DNA of 64,000 nucleotides from Moraxellaceae bacterium (GTDB lineage: Bacteria; Pseudomonadota; Gammaproteobacteria; Pseudomonadales; Moraxellaceae): assembly GCA_004173455.1 (NCBI GenBank), contig SECL01000007.1, positions 22,107 to 86,106 on the forward strand, given 5' to 3'. The position numbers were made by a program, and so were the translations under genes. Positions 56,578 to 58,252 of this stretch are shown here, piece after piece. The notes beneath the pieces are model-generated. The model saw only the letters and a list, made by a program, of their open reading frames with translations. It had not been told where the DNA came from and searched no databases. Position 1 is the first letter of the stretch, and every line of letters starts with the position of its first letter.

Positions 56578-56590
56578 GTTGGAAGTTAAA

Positions 56591-56635
56591 AATAAAAAAG
56601 CTGCGAATGACGGACTGTTTAGCAGCTTTTTTATT
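56591..56635. terminator. Bidirectional intrinsic terminator
   Basis: AATAAAAAAGCTGC...GCAGCTTTTTTATT. Confidence 0.8.
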
Positions 56636-56651
56636 TGAGTAGCAAAAGGTT

Positions 56652-57374
56652 TTATAGCTCTTGAATCTGCTCAAGGCTTAGGGTATGGAGCTCAAACAAA
56701 GGCTGTTTCAGCAGGGCATTTAGTGCCTTGATGGTCTGGTAATCAGAGCCATTCCCATTGATTACTAAAGTCTGCTTTTGTGCATCAAAACTGATACCTG
56801 CTGTGTTTTTCAAAAAGACCTGCAAGATTTCAGGACTATCACTCAGGTCAGCCAGACTTCCTTGCAAGGTTTGATCCATTCTACTTAAAAAGTACCAGTC
56901 GCAATCGCTACCTTCAATAAAATCAGGATTGCTGTCAAAAAGGGTTGAGCCAGTATCATAATGATCCATATAGGATTCTTCTGCATTGATCCAGATGGCG
57001 TACTGCGGTTTGCTGTCATCAAATTCAATCAGCTGGTAGCACAAGATGCCAGACAGTTTGGCAAATTCAAACGCATCATCTGCGCTCATTTCTGGCAATG
57101 TTTCGTTATCAAATGCTTTACTGGTTTTTTCTAAAATAAAGGCTTCTATTTTTTCATAGGTTTCATCGTCTGCTTCGCCATTGCCAATATCGTACTGACT
57201 TAACTCATATTCGTTATATAAAGCGTCAACGATTAGGGTTTTATAGGCTTCTTCCGCTTCAACTTTATCGCTATAAACTGCGGCAATCTGCCCGGCAGTA
57301 GCATCGTCGGTTAAAAACCATTCATCGTTGTAGGCAAAGTTATTGTGGCGGATAACATATTTAATGTTGTTCAT
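56652..57374 (-). CDS. Highly acidic hypothetical protein (partner of the DUF6915-like gene)
   Basis: 240-aa ORF with AAGGA RBS; hand count about 46 D/E versus about 14 K/R; no recognised family. Confidence 0.7.
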   Translation of the reverse strand: MNNIKYVIRHNNFAYNDEWFLTDDATAGQIAAVYSDKVEAEEAYKTLIVDALYNEYELSQYDIGNGEADDETYEKIEAFILEKTSKAFDNETLPEMSADDAFEFAKLSGILCYQLIEFDDSKPQYAIWINAEESYMDHYDTGSTLFDSNPDFIEGSDCDWYFLSRMDQTLQGSLADLSDSPEILQVFLKNTAGISFDAQKQTLVINGNGSDYQTIKALNALLKQPLFELHTLSLEQIQEL

Positions 57375-57451
57375 GATTTTGATGTCCTTTATTTAATTAA
57401 CTTGAGTGTTATGGCCTAAAAATTTTGATGAAACGGTTTAAAAGTTATTTT

Positions 57452-58069
57452 CTAAGCAATCTTACTTTTTAAATCCTGCAATTTCAGTGCGCTGGGTGGC
57501 GCCACCGTGCCATTATCCATCCATAGTTCAAAGCGCATCGGATTAAAAAACATAGCAGGTGTGATATCAAACTCGATAAACTTAGCGTTACTTTTGCCCA
57601 TTAGCGGTAAAATGGTATTAATAAACCAGCTATTGTGCGTAATGAGCAGTGATTTTAATTGTCCCGTAACGGATAAAGGCGAGAGCAGAGTGGCGGATAA
57701 TTTCGGGTCATCAATGACGTCACAGTGAAATTTTTCCAGTCGCTTGGCCAAACCGTTCGTGGGAATATCCTGCATAGCAGCCACAAAATCGCCTAGTGTT
57801 GGAATAAAGCGATGGTGAAAATCCACCAGCAAATGATCTTTTTCGCATAGGTCTTTGACTTCAATGCTTTTGCCTGCACTGTTATTAAAATAATGGCCAA
57901 ATACCGGAATAATCACTTCCTGCACACCCCAGAAGGTATGCAAAATGCGGTGACGGTTGTCAGTGCATAGCATTTTGGTACTATCGATAAGCGCATGAAT
58001 GTCAATATAGTCTTCAAGTTCGCCACCGCGCCGTCGTTGTGAAATTTGCGCGTGCTGTACAGGATTCAT
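57452..58069 (-). CDS. DUF6915-like His-rich protein with degenerate internal duplication
   Basis: MNPVQHA.S.RRRGG..EDY..IH..IDSTK....DNRHR.LH...G..FG...EKDH..D...IPTL.DF resembles the DUF6915 pattern as recalled; second half echoes the first. Confidence 0.7.
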   Translation of the reverse strand: MNPVQHAQISQRRRGGELEDYIDIHALIDSTKMLCTDNRHRILHTFWGVQEVIIPVFGHYFNNSAGKSIEVKDLCEKDHLLVDFHHRFIPTLGDFVAAMQDIPTNGLAKRLEKFHCDVIDDPKLSATLLSPLSVTGQLKSLLITHNSWFINTILPLMGKSNAKFIEFDITPAMFFNPMRFELWMDNGTVAPPSALKLQDLKSKIA

Positions 58070-58218
58070 GGTTAGGTTTGATCCGTTTTCTTTGTTTTTA
58101 AATCCTAGCAAAAAAGTAAGGCAAATAATTGAAATAATTTATGATTAAGTCATATCTTGTCGCTTAATAAATTTTTATAGGATTTCTATAGAGCAATAAA
58201 AGAAAGCGCCATAAAAGA

Positions 58219-58252
58219 AAAAAGCCATGCTAAAAAATAAACATGGCTTTTT
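58219..58252 (-). terminator. Intrinsic terminator after gatB
   Basis: AAAAAGCCATG...CATGGCTTTTT. Confidence 0.75.

Follow-up and report, generated by a model that had tools for sequence, protein, structure and literature searches.

The 64,000-nucleotide (nt) window analysed in this study (contig SECL01000007.1 of the Moraxellaceae bacterium assembly GCA_004173455.1, positions 22,107 to 86,106 of the forward strand) carries a pair of adjacent minus-strand genes between gltS and gatB. Gene 1 encodes a 205-residue protein with an N-terminal DUF6915 domain, and gene 2 encodes a strongly acidic protein of 240 residues. The original prediction described the pair as an insulated cassette and proposed that it is an undescribed toxin-antitoxin (TA) or antiphage system whose first product is internally duplicated and metal dependent. 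Our analysis indicates that the two genes form a conserved partnership found in three phyla, and suggests that the product of gene 1 contains a metal centre. The locus comprises the following features.

56577, plus strand: end of gltS.
56590-56636, both strands: bidirectional terminator-like hairpin common to gltS (plus) and gene 2 (minus).
56652-57374, minus strand: gene 2, an open reading frame (ORF) of 240 amino acids (aa), 77 nt 3' of gene 1.
57375-57451, minus strand: the 77-nt spacer that separates the two ORFs.
57452-58069, minus strand: gene 1, an ORF of 205 aa.
57452-57766, minus strand: C-terminal lobe of gene 1 (residues 102-205 and the stop codon), helical and specific to the long form of the family.
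57767-58069, minus strand: N-terminal DUF6915 domain of gene 1 (residues 1-101).
58110-58102, minus strand: extended -10-like element TGCTAGGAT, 33 nt before the gene 1 ATG.
58219-58252, minus strand: gatB terminator, a 13-bp stem followed by a T-run.
58276, minus strand: end of gatB.

Inspection of the locus placed two codirectional genes where they had been predicted, with a hairpin terminator on either side. The hairpin shared by gltS and gene 2 folds as RNA with energies of -19.4 kcal/mol on the plus strand and -16.2 kcal/mol on the minus strand (z scores of -5.8 and -6.2), and none of 200 shuffled sequences folded equally well. The gatB terminator (-16.2 kcal/mol; z score of -5.8) is insulating, shielding the cassette from upstream transcription. 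A terminator scan called none in the spacer between the two genes. This anatomy therefore bears out the description of the pair as an insulated cassette. The promoter assignment held in part: TGCTAGGAT is present upstream of gene 1 and is a plausible candidate promoter of the extended -10 type, but a consensus promoter scan makes no call there because a -35 element is absent. Alignment places the gene 1 start at the ATG at 58069 in all homologues, not at the TTG upstream. The GC content of the cassette is 0.36 to 0.43, compared with 0.50 to 0.55 in its flanks, a drop of approximately 10 points.

The order gatA-gatB-gene 1-gene 2-gltS-MFS is retained in three Alkanindiges species. The site is empty in two further genomes of this GTDB genus, where gltS faces gatB at a distance of only 260 or 630 nt; comparison of the empty sites of these two congeners revealed no clear target duplication at the insertion boundaries. 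The low GC content and the empty sites show that the cassette was acquired. Gene 1 was present in 14 of 151 sampled Moraxellaceae genomes, and gene 2 was found in all 14. Five more of the 151 carried gene 2 only, without a match to the Pfam model of DUF6915 (PF21866), in a search whose positive control worked. Elsewhere the pair lies between Peptidase_S11 and thrC, between SurE and DHH, next to a PT-HINT gene, or between an aminotransferase gene and YhcG. The cassette is thus an accessory, mobile module that is found in varied housekeeping contexts. At the Peptidase_S11/thrC site, Acinetobacter sp. C26M has both genes and one Acinetobacter-like genome keeps gene 2 alone. An apparent gene 1 remnant near an orphan partner proved to be TruA.

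Word-based homologue searches found gene 2 in Moraxellaceae only; in Hydrogenophaga and a cyanobacterium, however, distant homologues of gene 1 are each followed by a gene that clearly belongs to the gene 2 family. Pairing was counted in 80 loci that were fetched with a gene 1 profile and scanned with a gene 2 hidden Markov model. A gene 2-family ORF lay directly downstream on the same strand in 73 of them, starting between -97 and +258 nt from gene 1 (usually 3 to 30 nt), and the start and stop codons of the two genes often overlap in relatives. The paired loci span Moraxellaceae, Hydrogenophaga, Methylococcales, Thiotrichaceae, Cyanobacteria, and Bacteroidota, representing three phyla. There were seven exceptions. 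Three are contig ends; the Niastella partner is cut by a contig end; an extra acidic ORF separates gene 1 from its partner in Methylovulum, where the partner is 1.3 kb downstream; the Methylobacter locus carries an inserted insertion sequence (IS); and Flavobacterium has, instead, two upstream 140-aa homologues of the partner that consist of its N-terminal domain only (hhalign probability of 96.5%).

The pairwise distances of gene 1 and gene 2 were correlated (Spearman coefficient of 0.645; permutation P value of 0.001). A search of 1.84 billion cluster representatives returned two proteins, of 444 and 435 aa, in which gene 1 is followed by gene 2 in frame. These fusions are only 33% identical to each other, and the fused architecture is therefore old and real. 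Adjacency in three phyla, correlated divergence, and natural fusions support the view that the genes form a true functional pair, so the co-occurrence that the original prediction had anticipated does extend beyond this genome. The two products almost certainly operate as a single complex, and a predicted physical 1:1 partnership is the best-supported statement about the locus because of the adjacency, the distance correlation, and the fusions.

Several observations concern genes found beside the pair in other genomes. In a Hydrogenophaga metagenome-assembled genome (MAG), a 305-aa PT-HINT (pretoxin HINT) gene (L013:4020-4937) lies 64 nt upstream of the DUF6915 gene, which hints at a polymorphic-toxin context in that one lineage. 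A protein of 380 to 420 aa without a Pfam family is encoded upstream of the pair in Methylococcales and downstream of it in Hydrogenophaga (L017:3781-4920, L057:4712-5920, and L013:6530-7786). The Methylobacter and Hydrogenophaga copies show weak N-terminal similarity (28% over 121 aa; E value of 8e-4), and in Methylococcales extra acidic ORFs of 183 to 235 aa accompany this protein. On a metagenome contig that probably derives from Moraxellaceae (L102:8356-14046), a YhcG/DUF1016 nuclease-like gene and RsmE come after the pair, which adjoins a StiP/PELOTA_1/PRTase_2-TRSP/C-C_Bond_Lyase cluster.

Pfam domain analysis of the gene 1 product revealed a near full-length match to DUF6915 (98.5 bits; E value of 2.8e-28; residues 1 to 101 against model positions 1 to 98 of 102), exceeding the PF21866 gathering score of 27 bits. 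The protein also matches phrog_8143 (E value of 1.8e-17), and it has no match in NCBIfam. We aligned 44 homologues from Gammaproteobacteria, Betaproteobacteria, and Cyanobacteria, all of which match DUF6915; neither they nor longer relatives contained any other Pfam domain. The mean column identity was 61%, and 51 columns were invariant. When the short forms from phages and plasmids were added, the invariant residues were H6, S10, G15, G16, D20, H25, D29, K32, H40, R41, H44, G58, H79, D83, and P90. Five histidines and two aspartates are thus invariant from Alkanindiges to the short forms, in the order H/HxxxD/HRxx(x)H/HxxxD. The original prediction had pointed to clustered His and Asp residues as a possible metal-dependent active site, and the invariance of H6, H25, D29, H40, H44, H79, and D83 supports that proposal.

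Di-metal sites of the hemerythrin type have the motif H-HxxxE-HxxxH-HxxxxD, and those of the HD type have the motif H...HD...H...H...D. We read the gene 1 residues as a metal centre because their pattern, an ordered H...HxxxD...HxxxH...HxxxD carried on helices, resembles these sites; the His5/Asp2 set suggests a predicted metal centre. The likeness ends there, as gene 1 has no sequence, profile, or fold similarity to either group, its helices are shorter, and its domain is only about 100 residues long. The comparison by hhalign used HD and hemerythrin domains taken from related genomes. An HD phosphohydrolase was rejected (there is no adjacent HD dyad, and the probability against 13 PF01966 domains was 0.25%), as was a hemerythrin, which has a similar ligand order but gave a probability of 0.08% against 20 PF01814 domains and no fold match. 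No HD or hemerythrin Pfam match was found in the 44 members at E values up to 10. The AlphaFold2 (AF2) model of gene 1 is all-alpha, with a predicted local distance difference test score (pLDDT) of 85.7. Foldseek found no PDB match to it better than an E value of 1.2, the PDE10A matches being at chance level (E value of 5.8), and a search of BFVD yielded short DUF6915 proteins of phages and nothing else. Profile searches of the PDB gave no match for either gene 1 or gene 2.

The motif RHRILH had also been read as fitting the R-x4-H spacing of HEPN proteins, and this reading fails on conservation. The literal R39-x4-H44 is found in the long form, but short-form relatives have T or K in place of R39; the only invariant arginine of the motif is R41, which is spaced x2 to x3 from the histidine. 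No HEPN-family Pfam match was found in the 44 members at E values up to 10, nor any PDB fold match below an E value of 1.

The C-terminal lobe of gene 1 lies outside the Pfam model, which covers residues 1 to 101 only, and it has no Pfam match, DUF6915 included. It is nonetheless conserved, with H115, T144-H145, W148, and W183-M-D-N-G187 invariant in the 44-homologue alignment. The internal duplication originally proposed for gene 1 was not borne out: BLASTP of the two halves gave an E value of 0.19, hhalign gave probabilities of 0.9% for the N-terminal half against the C-terminal half and of 4.7% for the C-terminal half against a broad DUF6915 profile, and all of these tests, like the Pfam search, fell below significance. 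An ancient duplication is a possible origin of the lobes, because true tandem DUF6915 proteins occur in relatives and the two lobes show a similar helix pattern and spacing.

Gene 1 is under strong constraint. Its product shares 90% and 82% identity with the orthologues of two further genera, compared with 75% and 69% for GatB. Synonymous divergence (dS) is saturated between those genera; therefore, the identity of gene 1 reflects purifying selection and not recent transfer. Within the genus, the ratio of nonsynonymous to synonymous divergence (dN/dS) is 0.04 to 0.05, and purifying selection is stronger than on GatB. Across phyla, identity is still 51 to 59%.

The product of gene 2 contains exactly 46 Asp and Glu and 14 Lys and Arg residues, confirming the acidic composition noted at the outset; its isoelectric point is 4.05, and the median net charge of its family is -31. 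It has no family match in Pfam, NCBIfam, PADLOC, or PHROG, and on the basis of these profile searches it belongs to an uncatalogued family. Weak Tex_YqgF/RuvC matches (E value of 0.017 or higher) were judged to be due to chance. The AF2 model is an alpha/beta fold with a pLDDT of 88.5, and Foldseek found no match to it in the PDB. The best-conserved segment is an N-terminal strand-loop, Y-x-I-R-x3-F-x-Y-N-D-E (residues 6 to 18); further motifs are LSDSP (residues 177 to 181) and a C-terminal N-x2-L-K-x-P-x2-E. The region of the N-terminal motif has the lowest model confidence (pLDDT of 58 to 69), as is expected of a segment that becomes ordered only on binding something. Analysis of 25 partner homologues revealed no helix-turn-helix, ribbon-helix-helix, or AbrB match in Pfam, and the gene 2 model had no such fold match in the PDB. 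Gene 2 has a within-genus dN/dS of approximately 0.1, with a dN approximately 8-fold above that of gene 1, and by raw distance it diverges approximately 1.7 times as much. Partner genes also occur in tandem arrays of two to four.

A third, stand-alone partner subtype, closer to the cyanobacterial type, is present in other Alkanindiges genomes (L108:3995-4756, L110:3965-4720, and L117:4142-4735). Its neighbourhood includes an AraC-family regulator but lacks a DUF6915 gene, and in one genome it contains an in-frame TGA.

The long-form profile retrieved 1,008 clusters (represented at 50% identity) at an E value of 1e-3, 388 at 1e-10, and 40 at 1e-30. Gene 1 therefore shares with the DUF6915 family (PF21866; PHROG 8143) a near full-length model match and the His/Asp set common to phage and plasmid members, but it is a long form with an extra conserved lobe of 104 residues outside the model, a form to which only 40 of the 1,008 cluster representatives correspond at 1e-30. 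Short forms were found in 124 phage records, including Streptomyces, Bacillus, and Gordonia phages, Sinorhizobium phage phiM12, and Ralstonia phage RsoM2USA, and in 135 plasmid records, mostly from Rhodobacterales and Sphingomonadales. On conjugative plasmids, the short DUF6915 gene follows an acidic DUF6878 gene, among genes for single-stranded DNA-binding protein (SSB), a methylase, RadC, PcfJ, and TA systems. Plasmid leading regions are enriched in anti-defence and TA genes (PMC11541004), and the plasmid gene mix resembles such a leading, early-entry region, a likeness that is inferred from the mix itself.

In these other lineages too, DUF6915 adjoins a small acidic protein, often only a few bases away, and this protein is of a different family. 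The plasmid pairs differ from the cassette in that the DUF6878 partner lies upstream and is of another family (hhalign probability of <1%). In phiM12 (L118:4379-5011) and Gordonia phage Bantam (L120:4381-4878), the gene directly downstream encodes an acidic protein with a common YTPYFNDG-acidic-x-CEFGVN motif; these proteins may constitute a phage-specific partner family. A Chondrinema plasmid has two tandem acidic paralogues after its DUF6915 gene. An aromatic-N-D-G/E motif that seemed common to the acidic partner families was a visual impression only and was set aside. The plasmid and phage proteins are single domains or true tandem repeats, and their context is an establishment-type plasmid region or a phage accessory region, not the chromosome. 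Among the tandem forms is a 219-aa protein made up of two full DUF6915 domains, encoded on Sphingomonad conjugative plasmids (L099:6001-6660 and L121:1501-2160), where its gene either overlaps the end of a PcfJ-domain gene or begins shortly after it; the Sphingobium copy precedes an Arc/VapC TA pair and an HD-domain gene.

The reading that we prefer, tentatively and with somewhat less than even confidence, is that a metal-dependent DUF6915 enzyme or sensor is bound and regulated by its acidic partner, with a TA-like logic that is not strictly addictive. The cassette would be an accessory operon gained by horizontal transfer, with products that function together in a 1:1 complex. The N-terminal lobe of gene 1 (H6; H25-x3-D29; H40-R41-x2-H44; H79-x3-D83) would form a mono- or di-metal catalytic or sensing centre, and the conserved helical C-terminal lobe would complete the protein. 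Gene 2 would be the cognate acidic binding partner, whose F-x-Y-N-D-E loop may dock on or cap the metal site and thereby regulate, most probably restrain, gene 1. The anatomy of the operon, its acquisition, the co-inheritance across phyla, the fusions, the invariant residues, and the selection regime are shown; that gene 1 binds a metal, that the NDE loop docks, and that the effect is inhibitory are what we infer. Such a logic, an enzyme with its cognate inhibitor or regulator, would be like that of TA or effector-immunity pairs; the single-gene states found in nature argue that the pair is not a strictly addictive, lethal one. Several points weigh against this proposal. In fold and profile searches, neither gene 1 nor gene 2 resembles any solved structure in the PDB. 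Gene 2 has no detectable homology to DUF6878, to the phage YFNDGE proteins, or to the Chondrinema paralogues. Partner genes occur without gene 1, and so the partner may also act independently. Finally, the inhibitory direction is a guess, and the product of gene 2 might just as well be a subunit with an activating or structural role, or a substrate.

That the pair is a classic type II TA or toxin-immunity system, with gene 1 as a growth-arresting enzyme and gene 2 as its obligatory antidote, appears unlikely to us, although much of the layout fits. Like toxin-first (HigBA-like) type II systems and fused TA defences, the locus is a mobile unit of two genes that stands on its own among varied housekeeping neighbours and combines a conserved enzyme with a faster-evolving acidic partner; its genes are adjacent, codirectional, and co-inherited (73 of 80 loci; distance correlation of 0.645), and orphan partners and fused variants exist. 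Gene 2 accompanies gene 1 in every gene 1-positive Moraxellaceae genome and stands alone in five others, as it does at the Peptidase_S11/thrC site, and the plasmid DUF6878 and short DUF6915 genes follow the canonical antitoxin-first order among SSB, methylase, and TA genes (cf. PMC11541004). Polymorphic toxin-immunity loci such as EsaD/EsaG have tandem immunity arrays (PMC9484751), and the variable partner directly downstream, its arrays of two to four, and its orphans in genomes that lack the enzyme recall them. In contrast to such toxins, gene 1 encodes a free-standing cytoplasmic protein of 205 aa without a secretion or trafficking domain and is far more conserved, and a PT-HINT gene adjoins the pair in one lineage only. 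No TA family is homologous to the pair; at 240 aa the partner is large, and in the 25 homologues searched with Pfam it lacks a DNA-binding antitoxin domain; natural fusions are atypical of TA systems; and conservation beyond that of GatB is housekeeping grade and unusual for a TA toxin. The cultured isolate Acinetobacter kyonggiensis ANC 5109 bears most directly on the question. Its gene 1 is intact and keeps every invariant residue, whereas its sole partner is split at approximately residue 85 by an IS630-like element (L069:6652-8304) with two minus-strand ORFs of 101 and 164 aa, and no other gene 2 copy was found in the genome. This argues against a strictly lethal toxin, with the caveat that an N-terminal partner fragment containing the conserved motif remains and might suffice for binding. 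A Methylobacter MAG likewise has gene 1 and no detectable partner. In an Agitococcus MAG (L051:6631-8426), the downstream partner is disrupted by the gene of a 320-aa IS30-family transposase, and gene 1 has a second, intact partner paralogue immediately on its upstream side.

We consider it improbable that the pair is a defence against phages or other mobile genetic elements, in which a fast-evolving acidic sensor or autoinhibitor releases a conserved DUF6915 effector on infection, as in fused TA defences. A conserved effector with a rapidly diverging and duplicating partner, the fused forms, the patchy distribution, low GC content, and varying insertion sites, and the one lineage in which a YhcG nuclease-like gene and a StiP/PRTase cluster adjoin the pair would all suit such a role. 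However, neither gene matched PADLOC-DB v2 at E values up to 1, the neighbours in eight Pfam-annotated contexts are mostly housekeeping genes, the within-genus dN/dS of the partner gives no sign of diversifying selection, and homologues are themselves carried by lytic phages and plasmids. There is, in our estimation, only a low probability that the genes encode an obligate two-subunit enzyme, or a metalloprotein with its chaperone, in a role outside genetic conflict, the partner serving as a subunit (structural or activating), as a metallochaperone, or as a substrate. Strong purifying selection on both genes, strict adjacency with frequent start/stop overlap, the fusions, and the viability in nature of both single-gene states are consistent with this; genomes with the partner only, partner arrays, the replacement of the partner by unrelated acidic proteins across DUF6915 lineages, and the accessory, patchy nature of a cassette found in 14 of 151 Moraxellaceae genomes and missing from congeners speak against it. 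A regulated metal-dependent DUF6915 protein with a cognate acidic partner is the reading that we retain.

The DUF6915 superfamily comprises approximately 1,000 clusters distributed over chromosomes, conjugative plasmids, and large phages, and a literature search found no paper naming DUF6915, DUF6878, or their accessions. It is possible, though doubtful, that DUF6915 proteins and their interchangeable acidic partners form an unrecognised and widespread two-component conflict module encoded by chromosomes, by the establishment regions of plasmids, and by large phages, in which a new metalloenzyme fold is joined by a partner acting as inhibitor or sensor. If this is true, the module would represent a new TA, defence, or anti-defence superfamily. 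The locus described here is a clean chromosomal example, with one protein more conserved than a core translation enzyme and a partner that evolves approximately 8-fold faster and is duplicated, orphaned, and occasionally fused; the folds of both are confidently predicted, and the models have no PDB relative. Establishing the chemistry of the His5/Asp2 site, and what the acidic partner does, would give a function to the whole family, which includes genes in plasmid regions resembling leading, early-entry regions and in phage accessory regions.

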